Assembly (NCBI GenBank): GCA_903854215.1
Contig: CAINVT010000009.1
Location: 191 to 64,190, forward strand
Direction of reading: 5' to 3'
Source of the DNA: an uncultured bacterium
GTDB taxonomy: Bacteria > Patescibacteriota > Minisyncoccia > Phycocordibacterales > UBA2100
DNA: 64,000 nt
Part shown: one piece after another, positions 18,747-31,289 of the stretch
How positions within the stretch are numbered: the stretch's first letter is position 1
Layout of the letters: each line of letters opens with the position of its first letter
Position numbers and translations under genes: made by a program
The notes under the pieces: generated by a model
The model's database searches: none
The model's input: only the letters and a program-made list of their open reading frames with translations
Told to the model about the DNA's origin: nothing

Positions 18747-18828
18747 AAAACCTATACACTTCTGTTGTTTTGTGATATAAAGCATAGAGGGAAGCCCGTC
18801 GGCTTCAGATAAGAAAAGGGAGATAAAC

Positions 18829-19062
18829 ATGCACATTTACATTCCGCTGTGGATCGTCTGCTTGTATATGGCCATTGTAACGGTCGGGGCCTTATCGTGC
18901 TGGTTAACAGTTGATTACGGGTGGGGAAGCGAGAAAAAACGCGGTTTTTTCTACCATCTGTCAAGATTTCTAATCTATTTCGTAATATGTGCAATCTTCT
19001 GGCCGCTCTCCCTCCTCGAGGAGGGGCTCGACAAGCTGCCTGCGAGAGGAATTTTGCGCTGA
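18829..19062 (+). CDS. small membrane protein (two TM helices), hypothetical
   Basis: 77 aa. A GGAG-like RBS (GGGAGATAAAC) lies upstream and a terminator hairpin downstream. Confidence 0.4.
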   Translation: MHIYIPLWIVCLYMAIVTVGALSCWLTVDYGWGSEKKRGFFYHLSRFLIYFVICAIFWPLSLLEEGLDKLPARGILR

Positions 19063-19080
19063 TCGCTGATGTTGTGAGCG

Positions 19081-19112
19081 GCGTGGCTTGGAAGCCACGC
19101 CGATTTCTGTTA
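19081..19112 (+). terminator. rho-independent terminator-like hairpin
   Basis: GGCGTGGC-TTGGAA-GCCACGCC (8-bp perfect stem) followed by GATTTCTGTT. Confidence 0.5.
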
Positions 19113-19453
19113 TACCCACATGGGACTTGCATAATATGAATTATTGTTTTAAAGTAATAAAAGTAGGCGTCTTGAAGCGTCTGGATAGGATTGGTGAAGG
19201 AGATGGGCGATGACACTTCGTAACCAGATGGCGATAATAACGGTGTTGCTGCTGCTCATTGTGGTAGCGGCAGTTTGTGTCACACCGGATTCGACCTCAT
19301 CAGGCGCGGAAATCCTCCGTATGATCGGGCTTGATCCAGGCAAATTTAGGTGACACGCGACATCTTTGGTCAAGATGATCAAAAATTTCGTGCTACCCTA
19401 TCAGTAGGATCTTTTCCATCCTCATAGAGAGTAGAGTCCAAAAGGAGAAGGCC

Positions 19454-20734
19454 ATGAAGACAACGACTCAAGTCGCTCGGGATGTTGCCTTTACGGCCAA
19501 CACCCTCGGACGAGTAGCCTGCGATGCGCTCACTCTGCGAACTGGCTACCAGTTTTCGCGTAAACCTGGCAGATTTGCTTTTCTTGTTCATCCGAGAACT
19601 GCAAAACTTAGTCAAACAGGCGTGTATGGCGACAGTGATGTTTTCAAGGCAATTCCCGCCTTCAAATATCTCCGTCACATATTGCCAAAGCAATACGCAG
19701 AGCGTACTACGTTGCGGTTCTTAAGGAGACTACCACCGTCAACGATCGGGTATATATCTGCTCGGGGCGACGGGTATGACGTTTCTGGTCGTCTGCTCAC
19801 CACCCCCCGGCCGTTGGACATTCTGTTCAAGAATCCTGAAGAGACGCGCCCGCATCTCGAAGAGCTTTTCAGACTTGCAGCGTTGCAAGGAAATGATCGG
19901 GTGGGGCTTGGCGGACTTCTGCCTTCGCTCACCCGGGGTGGCAGACTGTTCGCCGGGATGGAACTAGCGTCGCGACCCGCAGTTTCAACCGGACACGCGT
20001 ACACGGCATATGTGATCTCCGAGTATCTGTTGCATCTTGTTTCTCACCGAAATAGAGATGGGGCAGCGCCGGAAGTGGCAGTTGTCGGCGCGGGCGGTTC
20101 AACTGGCAAGGCGATAGTGCGAACGTTTACTCGCGCATGGCCCAGCCGCGACATGTCTCCGATTAACCTGCTTCTCGTCGATACCAGGGAAGATCGGCTG
20201 ACTGAGATTGCTCAAGAAATCTCTGCCTGTCCAGCATTCAATCGTGTCAGGACGAGTGACAATCTCGCATCGATACGGAATTGCGAGTATGTGATCGTCG
20301 TAACTAATGCTCAAAATGCGATCATTAAGCCCGAGCACGTACGTCCGGGAATGGTGATCATTGATGACTCGCAACCTCGCAATACAGGTCCCGAGCTCGA
20401 AAAAGCCGGCTGCTTCGTGCTCGACGTGCTTGCTCGAATCAATGGTCTTGATTGTCGTTTCAACTTCGGCTTCAAAACTCTTGATCGAACGGTAACATTC
20501 ACGTGCTTGGCAGAGACAGTTCTCGCCGCTATTGCGGGATGTTCCGATGACCTCGCAGTCGGGGAAGTGACTTATGACGTGATCGAGCGGATGCTCGAGA
20601 TCGTCGAAGTCGGGAAACATCTCGGAGCGATCGGCGCGATGCCATTTTTCACCTTCGGGAGAGAGATGTCACCGAGCTTGAAAGAAAGACTGCATCAACC
20701 GGCAAAAGGTCGTGCGCTTGCCGCTGCAGAATAG
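19454..20734 (+). CDS. acyl-ACP reductase (AAR)-like NAD(P)-binding protein
   Basis: 426 aa. Three motifs line up with my recollection of cyanobacterial long-chain acyl-ACP reductase: STGHAYTAYVISEYL (cf. TGNTHTAYVICRQV); the Rossmann VAVVGAGGSTGKAIV (cf. VAVVGATGDIGSAV); and YVIVVTNAQNAIIKPEHVRPGMVIIDDSQPRN (cf. [33 protein letters not shown]). The Cys in LDCRFNFGF sits at the position of the AAR catalytic Cys (EHCFDID). Confidence 0.55.
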   Translation: MKTTTQVARDVAFTANTLGRVACDALTLRTGYQFSRKPGRFAFLVHPRTAKLSQTGVYGDSDVFKAIPAFKYLRHILPKQYAERTTLRFLRRLPPSTIGYISARGDGYDVSGRLLTTPRPLDILFKNPEETRPHLEELFRLAALQGNDRVGLGGLLPSLTRGGRLFAGMELASRPAVSTGHAYTAYVISEYLLHLVSHRNRDGAAPEVAVVGAGGSTGKAIVRTFTRAWPSRDMSPINLLLVDTREDRLTEIAQEISACPAFNRVRTSDNLASIRNCEYVIVVTNAQNAIIKPEHVRPGMVIIDDSQPRNTGPELEKAGCFVLDVLARINGLDCRFNFGFKTLDRTVTFTCLAETVLAAIAGCSDDLAVGEVTYDVIERMLEIVEVGKHLGAIGAMPFFTFGREMSPSLKERLHQPAKGRALAAAE

Positions 20735-20815: not shown

Positions 20816-22417
20816 ATGTCTTTAAACTTCGACACAATCAATATCCTTGTCACCGTTGCGGGCGTGGCAAACCTCGCGTATGGCTTTCTCGTATGGGAGC
20901 GTGGAAAACACGAAAAAATGAATGAGGCGTTTTTCTTTTTTGCTTGTACCGTTACCCTTTGGGCAATCGGAATGTTCTTGTTTCGTGGTACTCTTACAGA
21001 AAGTTCAGCAGTCTTTGCTGCGCGTTTCTTGTACATAGTTGCAGCGCTTATTCCACTTGCTTTCGTTCATTTCGCATTCGTATTTGAAGCACCGTCATAT
21101 AAATACACATCATCAAGGGCAACATTAATCGCAATACCAGGTGCAATAGCTGTTGGCCTCGCAGCGATACCGAACATGCTTATCACCAGTGTTATTTTTG
21201 TACCGGGACATGAGCCGATCATCTTATTCAATCTTTTTTTCCACCTGCTGTATTTTTGCTATATTACCACGTATGCACTCGCCGTTTTAATACTGCTGTT
21301 GAAGCGATTTTCGCAGAGTTCAGGAGTTGTTCGCAACCGGATCGTGTACATTTTAATTGGTACATCTTTGCCGTGGACTGTCGGTATAACAACGAACATT
21401 ATTCTTCCCCTGTTCGGCATCTTTGCCTATAACTGGCTTGGACAAGTATCAACCTTCTTTTCTACGACGGTCATTTCCTACGGAATTTTTCGGTCGCGGC
21501 TCTTCAATGTTCGAGTCGTCACGACCGAGTTGCTCGTGCTTATTGTGACATTCATTTCATTCATACAGATACTTTTGAGCGCGAATGTCAAACAAACATT
21601 TTTGGAAGCGTGTGTCTTCATATTACTGCTCATTGCCGGTTACCTCCTCATTCGGAGTGTTTACCATGAAGCCGAACAACGTGAACTAATCGAACGTCAG
21701 GAAAAAAATCTTGAGGCAGTCAATCTTCAACAAGAAAGCCTCCTTCATTTCATGAGCCATGAGATCAAGGGGTATCTGACAAAAAGCGAGGCGGGGTTTG
21801 CCGCCATCGTACAAGGTGATTTTGACCCCGTCACACCGGAACTTGCGCGCATGGCGAATGATGCGCTTGTCGACATACGCAGGGGCGTTCGCACTGTCAT
21901 AGATATTTTGGACGCGTCGAATCTCAAGCGTGGAACCGTTTCCTTCAAGAAGAATGTGTTCGATCTCAAAGATGTGGTACAAGGCGTAGTCGATCACCTG
22001 AAACCCGCCGCAGACGAAAAACATCTGACCATCAACATGTCTCTCGCGTGGGAAGTGCCGTGCAAGGTTATCGGTGATGAAGAGAAGATTCGCAATCATG
22101 TCATTCGTAATCTTGTCGACAACGCGATCAAATACACACCCGCGGGCACTATTTCCGTGGAAGTCATCCGAGTCGACAAAATAGTGCGATTTAGCATACA
22201 AGATAGCGGCGTTGGCATCACCGATGAAGACAAAAAGAAGCTTTTCACCGAGGGTGGTCATGGCAAAGATTCGGTCAAGGTCAACGTGCATTCGACCGGC
22301 TATGGTCTCTACATCGCGAAGACTATTGTCGAAGCCCAAGGCGGCAAGATTTGGGCCGAGTCCGAAGGGGCAGGGAAGGGGTCGAGATTCGTGGTCGAAT
22401 TGCCTGCTGTTACATAA
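20816..22417 (+). CDS. sensor histidine kinase with an N-terminal polytopic (about 8 TM) sensor domain; no adjacent response regulator
   Basis: H-box SHEIKGYL, N-box VIRNLVDNAIKYT, G1 IQDSGVGI, G2 GYGLYIAKTIVEAQGG. Confidence 0.85.
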   Translation: MSLNFDTINILVTVAGVANLAYGFLVWERGKHEKMNEAFFFFACTVTLWAIGMFLFRGTLTESSAVFAARFLYIVAALIPLAFVHFAFVFEAPSYKYTSSRATLIAIPGAIAVGLAAIPNMLITSVIFVPGHEPIILFNLFFHLLYFCYITTYALAVLILLLKRFSQSSGVVRNRIVYILIGTSLPWTVGITTNIILPLFGIFAYNWLGQVSTFFSTTVISYGIFRSRLFNVRVVTTELLVLIVTFISFIQILLSANVKQTFLEACVFILLLIAGYLLIRSVYHEAEQRELIERQEKNLEAVNLQQESLLHFMSHEIKGYLTKSEAGFAAIVQGDFDPVTPELARMANDALVDIRRGVRTVIDILDASNLKRGTVSFKKNVFDLKDVVQGVVDHLKPAADEKHLTINMSLAWEVPCKVIGDEEKIRNHVIRNLVDNAIKYTPAGTISVEVIRVDKIVRFSIQDSGVGITDEDKKKLFTEGGHGKDSVKVNVHSTGYGLYIAKTIVEAQGGKIWAESEGAGKGSRFVVELPAVT

Positions 22418-22483
22418 AAGTCTCTTTCTAAAGCAAATAGACAGTTTTTATAAACGAGCATATTACGCTCATAATAGCTTTGT

Positions 22484-23944
22484 ATGTCGCGATTAGTCGT
22501 CTTTTGCGGGGGGATGGGAAGTGGAAAATCCACCTGCGCTGAGATCTTGGGAAACCATTTATCGGGAAAAAAAATTCGAGTGAAATACCTTAATGCATAT
22601 AAAGATCTTTACGAACCATTCGCGAGAAAGCAAGGTTTGGAGATACCTACGGACGTAACTCGCGAGAAGAGTAGTGACCTCGTACAGCAACTCTATAAAC
22701 GCTTTGGCAAGGAAATTGGAAGTGAACTTGTTATCGATCTCATGCGCAACAGTCACGACGAGGACATCTATATACTTGACAGTAAAAGGAATCCTGCCGG
22801 TATCACATTTCTTAAAAAAGAGCTCCACGAGCAATGTGTGGTCATTGGTGTTTATGCAAATGAGCAAATTCGCGCGAATCGCCTCATGCGTAGGCAACGC
22901 CCAGATGATGAGTTTCGGAACAGAGACGTAATCACTAATGCCATGCTCAAAGAGGAAACGCTGTATGCTCTCAGTGAATCGCTTAAGCTTGCGGATCACA
23001 CCATTGCGAACATATATGATTCGATTCAAGAACTTGAAGAGGCGATGGCGCCGATCATTGTCCTCCTTTGTGATCAGGAGTATGATCTTGTCAGATATGT
23101 GAGGGCACTTTGGGCGAAATTGATGGCTGTATATTTTCCCACAGAGTCAGTAGATTCAAAAAACAATATGAATACGCTTTTAAAGCTCGCAGTGCAAAAA
23201 GTAGAGCTTGCGAGATTCTATGATAAATATTGCATCAACATACTATCAAACGTAGATATTTCCACTCTGGAGCAGTCCAACAACGAGTTTGAGGTTAAGT
23301 TTCGGTGCACAAACAAGAACAAGGATATTCTATGCTCCTATCTTGAACGTATAGGCATATCAAAACTCCCCGATCACGTGCTTGAAGACGATATTGTTAT
23401 TGACACGGAAGATGGAAAATTGAAGCGGCTGGGTGTTTTGGTAAGATTTCGCAATTCGAATCAAGAACCGTGTCCACTGCTCACTTTAAAGTTTAAACAA
23501 TCGGGAGACAGGACGACCAAGCACGACATCGAATTACAAAAGAATTTGACGAGAGCAAACATGTTTTTCTCCGAACTGGTGAACGACTTCTTCCAGGCGC
23601 TCAACTTAGAAAAAATTGATTTAGAATCCGTTTCGACCCTTCAAAATGGCGATGCCATTCAAAATTTTTTCAGCAATACGGTTTATAATCGCGTGAGAAT
23701 GCGTATCCAGAAACGAAGGAGCTCAATATCGCTATCGAACCACATTCAGGTATGCATTGATGAGCTACCTCATGATATCGGCACGTTTATTGAACTGGAG
23801 TCGGATTCCAAACTACAGCTCGAAAAGTTTATTGATAAAGTTGGTCTTGGTTATGATGTTGCGATAACCGACGACTATGGCAAGCTGGTAATCTCCTTTA
23901 ATGAACAGCACGGACGGACACCTTCTCGCGTAGCGATCTTTTAA
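22484..23944 (+). CDS. P-loop NTPase/kinase domain fused to a C-terminal CYTH (triphosphate tunnel metalloenzyme) domain
   Basis: Walker A VVFCGGMGSGKST at the N-terminus. The C-terminal FEVKFRC...LKRLGVLVRFR...LTLKFKQSG...KHDIELQ...RVRMRIQKRR...GTFIELE matches the CYTH ExExK/R-x-R/ExE pattern. Confidence 0.55.
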   Translation: MSRLVVFCGGMGSGKSTCAEILGNHLSGKKIRVKYLNAYKDLYEPFARKQGLEIPTDVTREKSSDLVQQLYKRFGKEIGSELVIDLMRNSHDEDIYILDSKRNPAGITFLKKELHEQCVVIGVYANEQIRANRLMRRQRPDDEFRNRDVITNAMLKEETLYALSESLKLADHTIANIYDSIQELEEAMAPIIVLLCDQEYDLVRYVRALWAKLMAVYFPTESVDSKNNMNTLLKLAVQKVELARFYDKYCINILSNVDISTLEQSNNEFEVKFRCTNKNKDILCSYLERIGISKLPDHVLEDDIVIDTEDGKLKRLGVLVRFRNSNQEPCPLLTLKFKQSGDRTTKHDIELQKNLTRANMFFSELVNDFFQALNLEKIDLESVSTLQNGDAIQNFFSNTVYNRVRMRIQKRRSSISLSNHIQVCIDELPHDIGTFIELESDSKLQLEKFIDKVGLGYDVAITDDYGKLVISFNEQHGRTPSRVAIF

Positions 23945-23950
23945 CCGAAC

Positions 23951-24939
23951 ATGAAGACAACCGTCACATCTCCCGCGCGGTTACATCTTGGTCTGATAGA
24001 TTGCGGTAACGCCACCCACCGTCTTTTTGGAGGTTTGGGCATATCGGTTGCGGGTCTACACGTACGGCTTGTCGCACAATCGTCAGATAAATGGAACTTT
24101 ACCTTGCGGGCGGACGCGAAGATGAACGGCTTGAACATGAAGTACGATTACTCTTCGAAAGACTACAAAAAATTGGCGCAGCCCCGTGTGATGTTGTCGT
24201 AGTGGACATGCCTCAACAACATTGCGGTCTCGGTTCCAAGACGAGCGTGTTGCTAAGTACAGCTGTCGCGATCGCTGACTTTTCAAATCTTCAACTTGAA
24301 CCCGCACAGCTTATCGCACTCTCGGGCCGCGGAGGTACCTCGGGCATTGGAATTAATACTTTTTTTCTTGGCGGAGTGATTGCCGATTCCGGCCATAGCG
24401 AACCAAAGCACTCTCGGAACTTTGCACCATCTTCGCGACGGATGGGACCAGCATCCTTACCAAAGGTTGTTGCACGAGTCGAAGTACCGGACAATATGCG
24501 CGTTCTCCTTTTTATCGATACTTTCTCGTCGAAAATACGTATTCAAGGCAACGAGGAAATGCGAATATTCGCAGAAACTATGCCTCTCAAAGAAATAGAG
24601 AACCTTCGATCACTCGCCGCCGTGTATCACGGCGTGATACCAGCGTTGCAGGAGGGTGATATGAATATGCTGTTCCAGTCCATCCGTGATCTCAACAGTT
24701 GTGGAATGAAGCAGATTGAAGTAAATCTACAGTCGAATATTACTCAAACTTTTATCCGCGATGTCTGGAGCAATTCGATACCGTGCGGTGTTTCAAGCTT
24801 TGGTCCAATTGTCTTCTGTATAGTTAACGCGAATTCTGACGCTATTACAGTGGCAATGAGGCTGGCACATGTCCATAACCTCACTTGTATGGGCCTCTTT
24901 GCATTCGACAATACTGGTGCAATCAGCGAGCGCTCATGA
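23951..24939 (+). pseudogene. GHMP-kinase superfamily, beta-RFAP-synthase-like gene interrupted by a frameshift near 24105-24130
   Basis: The N-terminal 83-aa ORF (23951..24202, frame 2) carries PARLHLGLID...GGLGISVAG. The 282-aa ORF (24091..24939, frame 1) carries the ATP-binding motif QHCGLGSKTSVLLSTAVAIAD. Both halves are needed for one GHMP-fold protein. Junction sequence: GCGGGCGGACGCGAAGATGAACGG. Confidence 0.5.
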
Positions 24940-24940
24940 T

Positions 24941-25822
24941 ATGGAACGGCTTTCTTTTTTGATTGACGATAGTGATCTTAGGCGCGCGCTCGAAACACTT
25001 GATATTGTCCTTGATTTAAAAAATATTCATAGAACACAACGAGGTTCAGTGATTATTGGAATGCGCGGTTCAGAGAAAGTCGCTGTCAAAATCGCTTCAA
25101 AAGATATATGCGATACGGAATTCGGAATCGTTCCAGCACGTAGTGTGGGACTTCAGAACGAAATTTGTGCACTCCTCAATCTCAAGGACAGCGGTCCGTT
25201 TCCCGAAATGATTGCCTGTATGGTCTCGCCCAAATTCAATATCTGCGTTATGAGATACATAAACGGAATGAGTGGCTTTGGAATTCCCGCCAATCAACGC
25301 CTCTCCGCCGTGCAGGGTCTATTCGTAGCTGTACGACGCCTTCATGAGCTTGGCTACACGCACGGAGATATCCAACCCAACAACATCATCTTTACTGATG
25401 GTCAGAGACCTGCTGTTACTCTGATCGATTTCGAGCTAATTTCACGCATTGATTCATCAGCCCCGCAATATCCCGGAAAGAGAGAGTATCTGTCTCCTGA
25501 AAGTGCGAACGAGGTATTAGGCATAGGATACGTCTCGCGGCACCTGTCACAAGATCTTTATGCGCTTGCTTTATCGTCGCTGACAATTCTTGCAGATAAA
25601 GAGCAAGTGACATACCACGGGCACGATCTTTCCGATGAGCAGAAACTTGGACAAATAGCCGCGCGAAACGTTCGAATTAACACTCCTTCGGGATATTCAG
25701 AACCAGTCTTTGCTCAAGCGCTGGAGAGGCTGATTCTCGATCCAAAATGGTTTGCGCTACGTACTGTAGATGATCTTGCTAAAGTAACTGATCTCCACTT
25801 CGAGAACTTCAATGTGCGCTGA
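24941..25822 (+). CDS. protein-kinase-like (ePK/APH/Kdo-kinase fold) phosphotransferase
   Basis: ATG at 24941, 2 nt after the preceding stop. Catalytic-loop-like YTHGDIQPNNIIF (HGD-x-x-P-x-N) and DFG-like TLIDFE. Lys candidate in VAVKIASKD. Confidence 0.55.
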   Translation: MERLSFLIDDSDLRRALETLDIVLDLKNIHRTQRGSVIIGMRGSEKVAVKIASKDICDTEFGIVPARSVGLQNEICALLNLKDSGPFPEMIACMVSPKFNICVMRYINGMSGFGIPANQRLSAVQGLFVAVRRLHELGYTHGDIQPNNIIFTDGQRPAVTLIDFELISRIDSSAPQYPGKREYLSPESANEVLGIGYVSRHLSQDLYALALSSLTILADKEQVTYHGHDLSDEQKLGQIAARNVRINTPSGYSEPVFAQALERLILDPKWFALRTVDDLAKVTDLHFENFNVR

Positions 25823-25914
25823 ATTCTCAATATTCTAAAAAGAGTACACATTCCCAGATTAAATGGTATAGTATTAAGGGGTATGCTCCTAGTACCCTTT
25901 GGGAGAAACGACTC

Positions 25915-26097
25915 ATGACTGTTTATGACCCTGTTGCAGCGCGGAAAGCCACCGAGAGACGCTTTCCTGTCACCTTTATCCGTGCTGCCGATGGCTGCCC
26001 AGTCGGGGCAGCAAAAGCGGACGATCTTGAAGCCGCGCTTGCAATCTTGTTCGAAAACGGCAACACTCGCGTTGACATCTCGTTTCCTGAGAAGTGA
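25915..26097 (+). CDS. small hypothetical protein (60 aa)
   Basis: RBS-like GGGAGAAACG upstream and a strong terminator hairpin downstream. No recognisable motif. Confidence 0.35.
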   Translation: MTVYDPVAARKATERRFPVTFIRAADGCPVGAAKADDLEAALAILFENGNTRVDISFPEK

Positions 26098-26108
26098 CGC
26101 TACGTCCG

Positions 26109-26145
26109 TGGCCGCCGTCTGATCGGCGGCCATATTTCATGTAAT
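26109..26145 (+). terminator. terminator-like hairpin upstream of trpS
   Basis: TGGCCGCCG-tctgat-CGGCGGCCA (9-bp perfect stem) followed by TATTTCATGTAATTTATT. Confidence 0.45.
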
Positions 26146-26191
26146 TTATTACACGGCTTAAAAAATTACTAGTTTCTGGTATTATAGGCTT

Positions 26192-27127
26192 ATGCAAAAA
26201 CTATTCAGCGGAATAAAGCCAACGGGCACCTTGCACCTGGGGAATTACTTCGGCGCGATGCGGCAATTCGTCGAATTGGCGCCACGCTACGACTGTATGT
26301 TCATGGTCGCCGATTATCATTCAATCAATTCCCAGCGAGACCCAGGCGAGCTTCGCAGCGGTATTATCGACATTGCCGCGGCATTCGTCGCGATCGGGAT
26401 CAATCCGGCACAATCGATCATTTTCAAGCAATCTGACGTGCCGGAGCACACTGAACTCACCTGGGTCTTCAACAACCTCGTCTCGGTATCATTTCTCATG
26501 CAGGCGCATGCGTACAAGGACGCAGTCGCCAACGGCAAAGAGGCCAACATGGGTCTGTTCGATTACCCGATGCTGATGGCATCCGATATCTTGCTCTACA
26601 ACACCGACATCGTTCCGGTCGGCAAAGATCAGCAGCAGCACGTCGAGTACGCGCGCGAGGCTGCGGCAAAGTTCAACAACGCATACGGCGAGACGTTCAA
26701 AGAGCCCAAGGAACACATCCTGGAAGCGGTCGCAGTCGTTCCCGGCACCGACGGCCGCAAGATGAGCAAGAGCTATGGCAATACGATTCCGCTCTTCGGC
26801 ACCAAGGACGAAATCGTGAAGGCAGTCATGTCCATCGTCACAGATTCCAATGCCGAAAGTCCGGAGAATGTTTATGCGATCCACTCGCTCTTCCGCGACA
26901 AGAATGAACTCGCCATCATATATACGGAAAACAAGGGCAAGTATAAGGCGCTCAAAGAAGCGTTGATTGAGGATATCGAGGCATTTGTCGCACCGATGCG
27001 CGAGGTGCGCGACGCGATCACCGATGGAGATGTGAAGAACATCCTGAAAGATGGCGGTGAGCGCGCCCGCGCCATCGCGTCGAAAAAGATGGAAGACGTA
27101 CGGCAAAAAATCGGCATTACCATATAA
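26192..27127 (+). CDS. trpS: tryptophan-tRNA ligase
   Basis: 311 aa with the class I motifs GIKPTGTLHLGNY (HIGH-like) and KMSKS, and TrpRS-length architecture. Confidence 0.93.
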   Translation: MQKLFSGIKPTGTLHLGNYFGAMRQFVELAPRYDCMFMVADYHSINSQRDPGELRSGIIDIAAAFVAIGINPAQSIIFKQSDVPEHTELTWVFNNLVSVSFLMQAHAYKDAVANGKEANMGLFDYPMLMASDILLYNTDIVPVGKDQQQHVEYAREAAAKFNNAYGETFKEPKEHILEAVAVVPGTDGRKMSKSYGNTIPLFGTKDEIVKAVMSIVTDSNAESPENVYAIHSLFRDKNELAIIYTENKGKYKALKEALIEDIEAFVAPMREVRDAITDGDVKNILKDGGERARAIASKKMEDVRQKIGITI

Positions 27128-27152
27128 GGGTTTACGAAACCCATAATTTCTT

Positions 27153-28481
27153 ATGGAACGAACATACATCAAAGATTTGAGTCAAAAAGTGGGAGAGTCG
27201 GCCTTGATCAAAGGTTGGGTATCGGTGCGACGCGACCAAGGCAAGATGATCTTTTTCGATTTTCGTGACATGACCGGCACGGTGCAGGGTGTCGTCTTAC
27301 CGAATAGTCCGGCAATGGAGACGGCAAAAGAATCACGGACCGAGTACGTCGTTGCAGTCGTTGGCACCGTCAACAAGCGCCCGGAAAAGAACATCCAATC
27401 TGATAAATTGAATGGAGATATCGAATTGCAGATCGAGAAGATAGAGATATTGAGTGCCGCTCAAGCACTACCGTTTGAACTTGATGCGGATCTTAATATC
27501 GATACATTGTTTGATTATCGTCCACTAACTTTGCGTCGCGAACGCGATCGAGCTGTATTTCGTGTTCAAGCAGAGATCGTACGCGCATATCGAGAATTCC
27601 TAAACAGCGAAGGATTCACGGAATTTCAAGCCCCCAAACTCGTCGGCGATGATGCCGAAGGCGGCGGCAATGTATTTAAGGTCGAATATCTCAAAGAAAA
27701 GAACGCCTATCTAGCTACGAGCCCGCAGCTTTATAAGCAGATCTTAGTGGGTGTTTTTGAGCGCGTATTTGCGGTTGGTAACGTCTTCCGTGCAGAAAAA
27801 CACGCAACGACGCGCCACTTGAATGAATACACCTCGATGGATATCGAGATGGGATTCATCAAGGATCACACCGATATTATGCGGATGGAAAATCGTCTCA
27901 TGAAGCACATCGTCGAACATCTGAAACGCACATCTGCGGCTGATTTTGCATTTATGAACGCCGAACTGCCGGTCGTTCCTGATGAAATTCCGCATATGAA
28001 GTTACGAGAGGCGCAGGTGTTGATTTCCCAAGCGACTGGTGTTGATTGCACCAATGAGCCTGACCTCGAGCCCGAACACGAACGCTGGCTTTGCAATTAC
28101 TCTAAAGAAAAATTTGGGAGTGATTTTATTTTTATTTCGCATTATCCTGTATCGAAACGTCCGTTTTACACGATGGAAGATTTTGAGGATCCGGGTTTTA
28201 CTAAGAGCTTCGACCTCTTGTTCCGCGGCGTTGAGATAACGACCGGTGGTCAGCGCGTGAATGAGTACCAGATGATGACCGACAAAATGCGCTCAAAAGG
28301 TCTTGATCCCGACAATTTTTCGTTCTATCTTCAAGCGTTCAAATATGGTTTACCTCCGCACGGCGGGTGGGGCATGGGACTCGAGCGATTGACACAGAAA
28401 ATGCTTGGACTTGATAGTGCAAAGGAAGCGGCTGTATTTCCGCGTGATATCAATCGCATCGATACGCGGCTCACCGAATAA
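27153..28481 (+). CDS. aspS: aspartate-tRNA ligase, archaeal/eukaryotic-type short form
   Basis: 442 aa with an N-terminal OB-fold anticodon domain. Class II motifs include FRAEKHATTRHLNEYTSMDIEMGF (AspRS-like LDMEM, rather than the AsnRS pattern), QLYKQ and GLERL. Confidence 0.8.
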   Translation: MERTYIKDLSQKVGESALIKGWVSVRRDQGKMIFFDFRDMTGTVQGVVLPNSPAMETAKESRTEYVVAVVGTVNKRPEKNIQSDKLNGDIELQIEKIEILSAAQALPFELDADLNIDTLFDYRPLTLRRERDRAVFRVQAEIVRAYREFLNSEGFTEFQAPKLVGDDAEGGGNVFKVEYLKEKNAYLATSPQLYKQILVGVFERVFAVGNVFRAEKHATTRHLNEYTSMDIEMGFIKDHTDIMRMENRLMKHIVEHLKRTSAADFAFMNAELPVVPDEIPHMKLREAQVLISQATGVDCTNEPDLEPEHERWLCNYSKEKFGSDFIFISHYPVSKRPFYTMEDFEDPGFTKSFDLLFRGVEITTGGQRVNEYQMMTDKMRSKGLDPDNFSFYLQAFKYGLPPHGGWGMGLERLTQKMLGLDSAKEAAVFPRDINRIDTRLTE

Positions 28482-28484
28482 TAC

Positions 28485-29216
28485 ATGGACACGCGATTCA
28501 ATCTTGCGACCCAAACCTTTGAAGGTCCGCTTGAGACACTGCTCAATCTCATCGAGCTTCGTAAGATGTCGATCTCAGAAATATCACTTTCGGAAGTTTG
28601 TGATGCATATCTCGCGTATGTCGAACAGTTACCGGAACTTCCGCTCGGCGAGACCGCGCAGTTCATTCTTGTCGCTTCGACCTTGCTCTTGATCAAATCC
28701 CGCACATTGTTGCCGACACTTGAGTTGAGCACCGAAGAACGCGAATCGGTCGAGGAACTCGAACGACGTCTCGCGCGTTATGCGGTGATTCGCAAAGCGG
28801 CGAAAGTCATGCGCAGCGAGTGGGGGAAAGCACCGCTCATTTTGGCAAAACGTGCGCCGCTGCGCGAGGCGGTCTTTTCTCCCGCGGAGACGAGCACCAT
28901 ACGCATCCGAGACGCGGCGATCAATCTCATCAAAAGTATTCCCAAGCCGGAACAATTGGCTCAAGCCGCCGTCGCACCTGTATTGGCCCTTGAGGACGTT
29001 ATTAAAAGTTTGCATGCACGCCTTACGACGGCGATTCGTACCCGCTGGAGCGATCTCACCAAAAATACGTCCGACAAACACGTGCTTATTGTCCATTTTC
29101 TTGCGGTGTTGGAACTCGTTCGCAATGGCAGTGCGAGCGTCTCGCAAGATAAACTCTTTAGCGACATCACCATAGAGATCGAAAACCTAACCGGCGCGCC
29201 GCGGTACGGCATTTGA
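28485..29216 (+). CDS. scpA: segregation and condensation protein A
   Basis: 243 aa; the N-terminus FEGPLETLLNLIELRKMSISEISLSEVCDAYLAYV is the ScpA signature. Confidence 0.85.
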   Translation: MDTRFNLATQTFEGPLETLLNLIELRKMSISEISLSEVCDAYLAYVEQLPELPLGETAQFILVASTLLLIKSRTLLPTLELSTEERESVEELERRLARYAVIRKAAKVMRSEWGKAPLILAKRAPLREAVFSPAETSTIRIRDAAINLIKSIPKPEQLAQAAVAPVLALEDVIKSLHARLTTAIRTRWSDLTKNTSDKHVLIVHFLAVLELVRNGSASVSQDKLFSDITIEIENLTGAPRYGI

Positions 29217-29285
29217 GTATGCATATGGTTCCCATGCACAGTCATGTGTGTTTGCGAATTTCAAAACGTGACCTATAATTTCCAC

Positions 29286-29546
29286 ATGGCAAAGAAGACG
29301 ACACTCAACGAACTCGGCTCGATGCTGGAGCATGTGGTCAAACACATGGCGACAAAGGACGATATTGCGAATATGGCGACCAAGGATGATATCGCTGCTA
29401 TTCGCAACGAGATGGCGACCGGCTTCCTAACGCTTCAGACCCAAGTCAATTCGATCGAAACCGATATCCACGGCATGAAGCATGCAAAACTGGAGTTTCG
29501 CGTACTTGATCTGGAAGAAAAAGTCTTCGGCAAAGTCCGCGCTTGA
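29286..29546 (+). CDS. small coiled-coil protein with a repeated MATKDDIA motif (DUF1640-like); paralog of 50983..51249
   Basis: MAKKTTLNELGSMLEHVVKHMATKDDIANMATKDDIAAIRNEMATGF...; ATG at 29286 within the longer ORF 29244. Confidence 0.5.
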   Translation: MAKKTTLNELGSMLEHVVKHMATKDDIANMATKDDIAAIRNEMATGFLTLQTQVNSIETDIHGMKHAKLEFRVLDLEEKVFGKVRA

Positions 29547-29560
29547 CTTGTTCGGTCGTT

Positions 29561-29615
29561 ATGGCCGTGCATGGTGCCCATGATGGGCACCATGCACGGC
29601 CATTGGGTATTTTCG
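29561..29615 (+). terminator. very strong perfect hairpin (21-bp arms) plus T-tract between scpA and scpB
   Basis: ATGGCCGTGCATGGTGCCCAT-g-ATGGGCACCATGCACGGCCAT followed by TGGGTATTTTCG. Confidence 0.6.
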
Positions 29616-29647
29616 AGCGCAAGGGTTAGAATTAAAACAAACATTTT

Positions 29648-30304
29648 ATGGAGTCTGCAGATTCTAAAGAACTTGCGAACAAAATAGAAGCCTTTATCTT
29701 TGTCGAAGGTGGCTCACTTTCGATCAAACGACTCATTCAACTCACGAACACTGACGATGTGCAGGTGCGCGCCGCACTTACCGAGCTTGCGCGCAGGCGC
29801 GATGGTAGCGGACTTATGCTCGTGCAAACGGATACCGATGCGACACTTGCAGCAGCTCCAAAAGAAAGCGAGATCTTGCGATCAAATTACGAAAAAGAAT
29901 TGGGGCGAGAGGTCGGTGATGCGGGCCTTGAAGTACTCGCGATCATCCTCTACCGCGGTCCATCGACCCGCGCGCAGATCGATTATATTCGCGGTGTCAA
30001 TACAAGTTCGACGATTCGCACGCTGCTCGCACGCGGACTCATCACCCGCGCGGGTAATCCCTTGGATGGCCGTGAATACGTCTATCGTCCGACCGTTGAA
30101 TTGCTCGCGCATATCGGCGCAGCTCATGTGCAGGATCTCCCGGAATATGATACGATTTCAAGTGAATTAAAAGCATTCGAGGAGATTGAGCAGGAAAGCG
30201 GACCTTTTAACCAAAATCATGAGCGAAATGCAACCGACACAACCGGAGGAGGAACTTTTGTTGACACCAGCACCACAAGAGATCCTTCTGCCACAGCAGA
30301 CTGA
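29648..30304 (+). CDS. scpB: segregation and condensation protein B
   Basis: 218 aa; tandem wHTH ScpB pattern (IEAFIFVEGGSLSIKRLIQL...LEVLAIILYRGPSTRAQIDYIRGVNTSSTIRTLLARGLI). Confidence 0.85.
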   Translation: MESADSKELANKIEAFIFVEGGSLSIKRLIQLTNTDDVQVRAALTELARRRDGSGLMLVQTDTDATLAAAPKESEILRSNYEKELGREVGDAGLEVLAIILYRGPSTRAQIDYIRGVNTSSTIRTLLARGLITRAGNPLDGREYVYRPTVELLAHIGAAHVQDLPEYDTISSELKAFEEIEQESGPFNQNHERNATDTTGGGTFVDTSTTRDPSATAD

Positions 30305-31289
30305 TATCGCACAGTCACTTCCGGAACAGGAAGTAGTTGTGCCATCACGTAATGCGTTACTTGTCATCGCCGGTATGGTGATCGTCTTCGCATTGGGCGG
30401 TTTTACGACATTTGCATATTTCAGCCACGCACCGCATATGGCGAGTTCCGTCACCAAACAAACCGCAGCGGTCGCTGCGACACTGCCGGATGCATTTGCA
30501 TCGGTCAAACTACAGGCGCAAAGCAGCTATGTATACGATATAGCGACGCACCAGGTACTCTTTACGCTCAATCCTGACGCCGAACGGCCGCTTGCATCGC
30601 TCACGAAGATCATGATGGCACTGGCCGTATCGCAGGTGTTGCCGCTTGATTCCAACATAACCATTCCGTACGATACGGCAGCTCCCGATAGTGCTGAGGT
30701 GCTTACAAAAGGTTCTGTGTGGCCGGTACGCGATGTCCTCAACTTCACGCTCATAGCTTCTTCCAACCAAGGGGCAGATATTCTGGCGGGAGCCGCTAAT
30801 GACGCGATACATGCCACCTATCCGCAATCGCCGGTTGTCGGCGCGACCGTGTGGCGCATGAACAACATCGCCCGTGATCTCGGGCTTTCCAGTATGACCT
30901 TTTCCAACGATAACGGGCTTGATCTCTCATCGACGCAGTCCGGCGCCTACGGCTCTGCGCGTGATGTCGGTACGCTCGTTGCCTATGCAGCCTCAACTTC
31001 GCTACCTGTCTTTTCTGCGACGACCAAGAGTAACATGACATTCAAGAATGATGACGGCCAAACGGCGACTGCGTACAATACCGATACCGCCCTCGGTGCG
31101 ATTCCCGGCATCATCATGGGAAAGACAGGCTATACCGACCTCGCCGGAGGAAATCTTGCAGTGGTATTCGACGTCGGCGTCGGGCATCCGATCGTTGCGA
31201 TCGTAATGGGGTCGACCGAAGAAGGCCGTTTCAGCGATATGAAGCAGTTGGTCGATGCGACCATTGCGGCGGTGAATCAGGGTCAGTGA
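30219..31289 (+). CDS. D-alanyl-D-alanine carboxypeptidase (serine-type, PBP5/6-like, S11)
   Basis: SxxK motif ASLTK, then SSN (IASSNQGA) and KTG (MGKTGYT), after an N-terminal TM anchor. ATG at 30219; the track ORF begins at a TTG at 30186. Overlaps the scpB 3' end. Confidence 0.8.
   Translation: MSEMQPTQPEEELLLTPAPQEILLPQQTDIAQSLPEQEVVVPSRNALLVIAGMVIVFALGGFTTFAYFSHAPHMASSVTKQTAAVAATLPDAFASVKLQAQSSYVYDIATHQVLFTLNPDAERPLASLTKIMMALAVSQVLPLDSNITIPYDTAAPDSAEVLTKGSVWPVRDVLNFTLIASSNQGADILAGAANDAIHATYPQSPVVGATVWRMNNIARDLGLSSMTFSNDNGLDLSSTQSGAYGSARDVGTLVAYAASTSLPVFSATTKSNMTFKNDDGQTATAYNTDTALGAIPGIIMGKTGYTDLAGGNLAVVFDVGVGHPIVAIVMGSTEEGRFSDMKQLVDATIAAVNQGQ

Follow-up and report, generated by a model that had tools for sequence, protein, structure and literature searches.

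ForT, from the formycin pathway of Streptomyces kaniharaensis (PDB 6YQQ, 8AOZ and 8AP0), and its homolog PyfQ are PRPP-dependent C-glycoside synthases. In ForT, PRPP binding requires residues R19, T106 and R135, of which R19 binds both phosphate groups of PRPP, and an elongated N-terminal strand is common to the two core sheets (PMC8183095). In ForT, the GLGSKTS/GHMP phosphate loop accommodates PRPP pyrophosphate rather than ATP (PMC8183095). A second described group is formed by the archaeal beta-RFAP (RHP) synthases, such as MJ1427/MptG, represented by the TIGR00144 and NF040726 profiles.

Here we analyse a related gene that is spread over two reading frames. It lies in a 64,000-nucleotide stretch of DNA (contig CAINVT010000009.1) from an uncultured member of Patescibacteriota, hereafter referred to as the window. 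An initial annotation had located the PxRLHLGLID motif in frame 2 and GLGSKTS in frame 1, and we found both ORFs to be as described there. Its designation of GLGSKTS as ATP-binding has to be revised, as in the ForT family this loop binds PRPP pyrophosphate (PMC8183095). ORF1 (23951–24202, + strand, frame 2) encodes 83 aa with the N-terminus MKTTVTSPARLHLGLID, whereas ORF2 (24091–24939, + strand, frame 1) encodes 282 aa and includes HCGLGSKTS. They share 112 nt, each reading this overlap in its own frame. It is delimited by a frame 1 TAA at 24088–90, just 5′ of the ORF2 ATG, and a frame 2 TAG at 24200–02. The features of the gene are as follows.

23951–24123, + strand: native 5′ part of the gene (frame 2, residues 1 to about 48–57), including the P-x-R-L-H-L-G-L-I-D strand with R10.
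24094–24123, + strand: interval in which frame 2 changes to frame 1 (sequence GAACTTTACCTTGCGGGCGGACGCGAAGAT), defined by a plateau of repair scores.
24124–24202, + strand: out-of-frame tail of ORF1 (frame 2), ending with TAG at 24200–02, with no family homology.
24091–24939, + strand: ORF2 (frame 1), with native family sequence that starts at about 24118 or before and ends with TGA at 24937–39.
Landmarks of ORF2: H91–T98 (HCGLGSKT pyrophosphate loop) and R127 in GRGGTSG.
24208–24210, + strand: in-frame ATG of ORF2 (Met40), 5 nt 3′ of the ORF1 stop, as read from the sequence.

Both ORFs match the same family. In the NCBIfam BetaRFA-P_synth profile, ORF1 covers positions 2–66 (E 1.5e-7) and ORF2 positions 66–302 (E 1.5e-44). 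Scored against an HMM of 328 positions that we built from the 12 closest homologs, ORF1 reaches 68 bits (E 7e-23) and ORF2 318 bits, the latter on HMM positions 59–324. The Pfam GHMP_kinases_N profile matches ORF2 and has no match in ORF1. The ORF2 protein is identical to a database protein (P0001). The profile matches, far beyond chance and collinear, indicate that ORF1 and ORF2 are neighbouring pieces of a single gene, in agreement with the original proposal of one GHMP-superfamily/beta-RFAP-synthase-like gene split by a frameshift.

ORF2 alone scores 141.5 bits against TIGR00144 and passes its subfamily cut-off of 113.5 bits; ORF1 adds 24.4 bits on profile positions 3–57. The score of the gene against NF040726 (152.4 bits) is below the equivalog cut-off of 328 bits. 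By these scores, the gene is a member of the beta-RFAP-synthase/ForT family but does not qualify as an equivalog of the methanopterin enzyme from archaea. It has counterparts of ForT R19, T106 and R135, the HxGxGSKT loop and a predicted ForT-like fold; what it lacks is one uninterrupted ORF of about 310–350 aa. Its predicted role is that of a synthase forming a C–C bond between PRPP and an aromatic carboxylate.

We next considered how homologs are encoded. We compared 166 homologous loci taken from GTDB genomes, JGI metagenomes and other assemblies, and in none of them is the gene split at this junction. Orthologues were expected to show a single continuous ORF if the gene is indeed broken, and in 162 of the 166 loci one uninterrupted single-frame match runs from the N-terminal motif past residue 280. 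The remaining four loci are L096, L097, L138 (a short contig) and L083. Two of these, L096 and L097, overlap at 99.4% identity, evidently represent one organism and contain a 5′-truncated copy of 242 aa. This truncated homolog (1461–2189 in L096, 270–977 in L097) starts just before the HxGLGSKT loop. Its neighbors are a gene for a P-loop-containing protein of 464 aa and fragments of an ATPase-like gene spread over two frames of the opposite strand. The homolog itself is probably a further family member that has decayed. We also aligned 16 single-ORF homologs with the gene in the window. A search for an intact allele at the protein level gave nothing between 100% and 58% identity, and an exact DNA pattern with a variable-length junction had no match in JGI metagenomes. 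The species of the window is not among the GTDB representative genomes, in which the best match is 39% identical.

These comparisons bear on the idea that nothing is broken at all, either because the two ORFs are naturally separate genes or because a stop codon is reassigned. Nothing speaks in favor of it except the existence of two ORFs. However, homologs are single ORFs of 310–350 aa and in no locus are they naturally two proteins at this junction (0/166), a stretch of 112 nt is common to the two ORFs but read in different frames, and ORF2 is without HMM positions 1–58. The stops that would have to be reassigned are TAA and TAG, and we know of no bacterial code in which either is. We rejected this explanation as virtually untenable. 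Both ORFs are better annotated together, as one frameshifted ForT/beta-RFAP-synthase-like gene (a pseudogene candidate); neither a pair of hypothetical proteins nor "GHMP kinase" is an appropriate label.

The shift is in the −1 direction: codons before it begin at positions ≡2 mod 3 and those after it at positions ≡1, and a repair takes either one additional nucleotide or the removal of two. All such repairs from 24050 to 24204 were constructed and scored against the homolog HMM. The scores form a plateau of 395–398 bits for junctions within 24094–24123, with the maximum at 24118–24120. The score is 392.7 bits at 24088–93, and there is a steady drop to about 381 bits near an A6 run at ~24170; repairs with the junction in 24124–24202 lose up to 17 bits or more. 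The earlier placement of the switch around 24105–24130 was thus essentially right, and the scoring now puts it within 24094–24123. Conceptual translation with a 1-nt change, suggested along with that placement, gives repaired versions that align continuously with the homolog HMM at 395–398 bits. In the repaired reading, a peptide spanning the junction would be, for example, ...WNFTLRGGREDER....

The plateau is mirrored at the level of individual residues. W48 (24092–94), the Trp that follows S-x-x-K, is kept in six of the seven closest homologs and fits frame 2, where SSDKWNFTL corresponds to SAEKWSFSQ of the best homolog (P0002). From 24118 onward, it is frame 1 (EDERLEHEVRLLFERL) that matches P0002 (PDTRLEKEVYALLRRL). 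Three other sites or causes were tried and rejected. A junction at TAA-ATG 24088–93 (...SSDK-MELYL...) scores 3–5 bits lower and loses W48. The A6 run at ~24170 as a slip site costs ~17 bits, and frame 1 homology to P0002 (EDERLEHEV vs PDTRLEKEV) begins upstream of it. Removing one copy of a 4-nt GCGG tandem duplication leads to the wrong frame and an early stop, as worked out by hand. In an AlphaFold2 model, junction residues 48–58 comprise a strand (49–52) and a loop (53–58) preceding a helix (59–74), and in the alignment the length of this region varies among homologs.

Could the full-length protein be restored by programmed −1 ribosomal frameshifting or some other recoding? The direction −1 is the commonest one in programmed frameshifting, and the gene is otherwise intact. 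However, there is no X_XXY_YYZ heptamer in 24080–24135, and no codon in 24086–24124 re-pairs well in the −1 frame: at most two of three positions match, and this solely for AAA and TTT. As for a stimulatory RNA structure, the fold of 24085–24205 has an MFE of −25.8 kcal/mol versus a shuffle mean of −26.4 (z = 0.20), and is thus no more stable than the shuffled controls. The sole slippery-looking run, A6 at ~24170, lies where homology already demands frame 1 (at the cost of ~17 bits), and a shift at this junction is seen in none of the 166 homologous loci. For all these reasons programmed frameshifting at 24094–24123 is very unlikely, and we give very little credence to recoding as the explanation of the locus. 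The frameshift looks like a recent ordinary inactivating mutation rather than a programmed recoding signal.

The change might also have arisen during sequencing or assembly, in which case the gene is intact and the consensus is short of one base, or has two extra, within the GC-rich GCGGGCGGACGCG. We consider such an artefact fairly unlikely. It would be consistent with the integrity of every conserved residue, with the lack of a second lesion, with the intact neighboring genes and with the genome being known from metagenome assemblies only. On the other hand, an independent assembly has an identical sequence across the site. A 958-bp contig (L001) of ENA assembly ERZ27229609, which represents a near-identical strain, is 100% identical to positions 24088–25045 of the window, which include the whole junction interval. 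This assembly is not a copy of the one containing the window, since another of its contigs (L087) has 2 mismatches in 3689 bp relative to window 26793–30481. As the site recurs in the independent assembly, a genuine recent mutation is favored over a systematic sequencing or assembly error common to both. L001 stops upstream at 24088, and it confirms the junction sequence but not the physical continuity with ORF1 in that sample. The start of this contig falls exactly at the TAA-ATG preceding ORF2, 6–35 nt upstream of the frameshift interval. For a contig of that length, the chance of such a coincidence was estimated at ~4 in 110; low coverage may account for the start, or else a strain variant at ~24087 that made the assembly graph branch.

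The contig names (k141_...) indicate short-read de Bruijn assemblies. Indel errors in assemblies of this kind are rare and concentrated in long homopolymers. The longest homopolymer at the junction is 3 nt, and a homopolymer error there is unlikely because no run exceeds this length. Moreover, some 28 further genes of the window cover their Pfam profiles in full and none of them is broken, among them DnaK, DnaJ, GrpE, ribosomal proteins, RpoA-region genes, ScpA/B, FtsW, MraY-like, TrpRS and AspRS. Three overlapping ORF pairs (29648/30186, 31332/32269 and 40931/41377) were considered as possible frameshifts and dismissed, as they represent different genes with over-extended starts. Likewise, the gaps at 9.2–10.7 kb and 12.3–13.4 kb are not broken genes; intact ribosomal protein genes lie inside. 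The initial annotation had left pseudogene, error and programmed frameshift open. The last is now very unlikely and a homopolymer error unlikely, while two assembled consensus sequences favor a mutation in the DNA over a read or assembly error.

Apart from the frameshift, the gene is in excellent condition. Of the columns found invariant across the 11 closest homologs, the repaired protein has retained 45 of 45 (12 from ORF1 and 33 from ORF2), and of the near-invariant ones 67 of 72. The AlphaFold2 model of the repaired protein, generated with the homolog alignment, has a pLDDT of 90.2 and a pTM of 0.89, and its top matches in PDB are the three ForT entries (TM 0.85–0.88). By sequence, too, no solved structure matches better than ForT (E 2.7e-45, nearly full length). 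ForT R19 aligns to R10 in ORF1, and T106 and R135 align to T98 and R127 in ORF2. It follows from the alignment that the active site and the fold are divided between the two ORFs. ORF2, which is without HMM positions 1–58, misses three core strands and the PRPP-binding arginine, and is predicted to be neither a complete enzyme nor, by itself, a complete GHMP-fold protein (PMC8183095). Neither piece is expected to function by itself, which makes a very young pseudogene the most probable state of the gene; we infer the loss of function from the division of the active site. The lack of any further damage suggests that the lesion is very recent, or an artefact, or, least likely, a tolerated split.

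In the case of a tolerated split, ORF1 and ORF2, the latter translated from ATG 24091 or upon re-initiation at 24208, would form an active two-piece enzyme. The break does coincide with a strand–loop boundary (residues 49–58) in a variable and lower-confidence part of the model (pLDDT ~80 for block 51–60), and homologs differ in length at this point. In addition, both halves are perfectly conserved, and an in-frame ATG occurs 5 nt after the ORF1 stop, although its use as a re-initiation start for a C-terminal fragment is speculative. However, such an ORF1 product would bear some 26–35 nonsense residues, and inspection of the sequence 5′ of ATG 24091 revealed no Shine-Dalgarno-like sequence. 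The strand missing from ORF2 is the long one common to the two ForT core sheets, which would be hard to supply separately (PMC8183095). With the junction split in 0/166 homologous loci, we regard a functional two-piece enzyme as distinctly improbable, and we return to the very young pseudogene as the preferred reading.

The genomic setting of the gene comprises the following features.

22408–26153, + strand: insertion of 3.75 kb, GC 45.3% vs 50.1% for the window, containing a three-gene module and a 60-aa ORF.
22447–22475: promoter-like site (promoter scan), the 5′ bracket of the insertion.
22484–23944, + strand: intact upstream gene of 486 aa, a fusion of P-loop kinase and CYTH (triphosphate tunnel) domains (Pfam AAA_18, CYTH).
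24941–25822, + strand: intact downstream protein-kinase-like gene of 293 aa with HGD...N...IDF motifs (Pfam Pkinase, E 4.4e-9).
25915–26097: 60-aa ORF with GC higher than in the rest of the insertion, followed by a terminator-like hairpin.
26108–26133: strong terminator-like hairpin (terminator scan), the 3′ bracket of the insertion.

The insertion was delimited by comparison with a contig of a sister Kaiserbacteria genome (L089), with which synteny is interrupted at 22407 and restored at 26154. Gene order is shared with L089 across GrpE-DnaK-DnaJ and from TrpRS onward, and in L089 a 7TM histidine-kinase gene is directly followed by TrpRS. Its DnaK is 94% identical to that of the window, for which the named best matches are 85–88% identical and which places the window in Candidatus Kaiserbacteria (Patescibacteria). 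No convincing flanking repeats of the insertion were found, and the 60-aa ORF has a homolog in none of the compared loci. PADLOC defense-system models gave generic kinase-domain matches for the neighbors and none for the synthase. Both the upstream and the downstream gene are intact, as stated in the initial annotation, which had described the operon as otherwise undamaged. The ORF table gives the protein-kinase-like gene a start at 24869, overlapping ORF2 by 71 nt. A start at ATG 24941, 2 nt after the ORF2 stop, is likelier, with tight spacing as in homologous loci.

The same two contigs differ in another place as well. Between a DnaJ-adjacent gene of 165 aa and the histidine-kinase gene, window 18752–20734 and L089 13539–19281 are completely different in the two sister genomes: the former contains a dehydrogenase-like gene of 426 aa, and the latter aminotransferase, ThiF and nitroreductase-like genes. 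Window 18752–20734 may be a second variable hotspot.

The three-gene module is not confined to the window. With an intact synthase, it is present in unrelated genomes with GC of 28–45% (L088 263–2646, L006 3134–6265 and L004 1827–5697). A homologous neighbor corresponding to the upstream gene occurs in L088 and L006, and one corresponding to the downstream gene in L088, L006 and L004/L005. In L088 (GC 27.6%), the CYTH-part neighbor is 39% identical to its counterpart in the window, the synthase 44.5% and the kinase 36%. The spacing of genes on the contig of the best homolog (P0002) points to the same neighborhood there. The module thus appears to be conserved, mobile and uncharacterized, with the copy in the window being the sole broken one among those compared.

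Further genes are found next to some of these copies. The L004/L005 neighborhood adds a PF01947 (Rv2949c-like) gene, which adjoins the module at L004 5098–5697, and a phosphoribosyltransferase. In Methanomicrobiales (Methanospirillum, Methanocalculus), a PF01947 domain is fused to RFAP synthase (P0014, P0015, P0017, P0020 and P0029). The association with PF01947 hints at a 4-hydroxybenzoate-type aromatic substrate. A homolog from a more distant subclade (that of P0010; L002 1–9450) adjoins HsdR/S/M, a Ham1p_like-AAA_18 fusion and a D12 methyltransferase, a setting with type I restriction-modification genes that appears defense-island-like.

In the papers we searched, nothing relevant was found on RFAP-synthase-like genes in connection with CYTH, protein kinases, defense or Patescibacteria. 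As far as those papers go, the combination of a ForT-like synthase with P-loop kinase, CYTH and protein-kinase-like domains is undescribed. The mobile module might make a phosphorylated C-riboside or a C-nucleotide-like molecule, and in the window it would have been inactivated only recently, or else operate with a two-piece enzyme. We view this idea as quite unlikely. The module is nonetheless of wider interest as a modest lead that might point to a new C-riboside metabolite, for which the intact copies in L088, L006 and L004 are better suited.

Considering all of the above, we think it probable that we are dealing with a true frameshift pseudogene, very young and located on an island acquired by horizontal transfer. 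One gene encoding a PRPP-dependent C-glycoside synthase (beta-RFAP-synthase/ForT family, GHMP-kinase fold) would have acquired a real frameshift in its DNA, a net −1 change (1 nt lost or 2 nt gained) within 24094–24123. Translation from ATG 23951 would then produce about 50–57 native residues followed by a nonsense tail to 24202, leaving the remaining 270-odd residues in the other frame, behind a TAA and with no evident ribosome-binding site. The N-terminal piece would carry the long core β-strand and the PRPP-phosphate arginine, and the C-terminal piece the pyrophosphate loop and the second arginine. The island that hosts these pieces, with its P-loop kinase-CYTH, C-glycoside synthase and protein-kinase-like genes, would be dispensable. 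Two observations count against a genuine pseudogene: a lesion that lacks second damage fits an artefact or a tolerated split equally well as a recent mutation, and the flanking genes are intact and tightly spaced, with no visible decay of the operon. Biologically, such a pseudogene would be ordinary, an early stage of decay in an accessory island that a CPR bacterium with a reduced genome had acquired recently.

How does the locus compare with known systems? It resembles ordinary frameshift pseudogenes in having a reading frame disrupted relative to intact homologs by a single indel-type change, in residing in what appears to be a dispensable, recently inserted island and in its lack of recoding signals. 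In contrast to them, it bears no trace of further decay, and would have been caught very early, or the lesion is not real. With ForT, the gene shares the counterparts R10, T98 and R127, the HxGxGSKT loop and, by the model, the fold (TM 0.85–0.88). Unlike ForT, to which its protein is only ~24% identical, the gene is frameshifted and has P-loop kinase-CYTH and protein-kinase-like neighbors instead of a formycin cluster, and the host belongs to Kaiserbacteria and not to actinomycetes. The layout and motifs are also those of archaeal beta-RFAP synthases, but the gene is 26–31% identical to them and has no methanopterin genes nearby. In contrast to the archaeal enzymes, it belongs to a separate bacterial subclade (P0002–P0008, 40–58% identity) with kinase neighbors.
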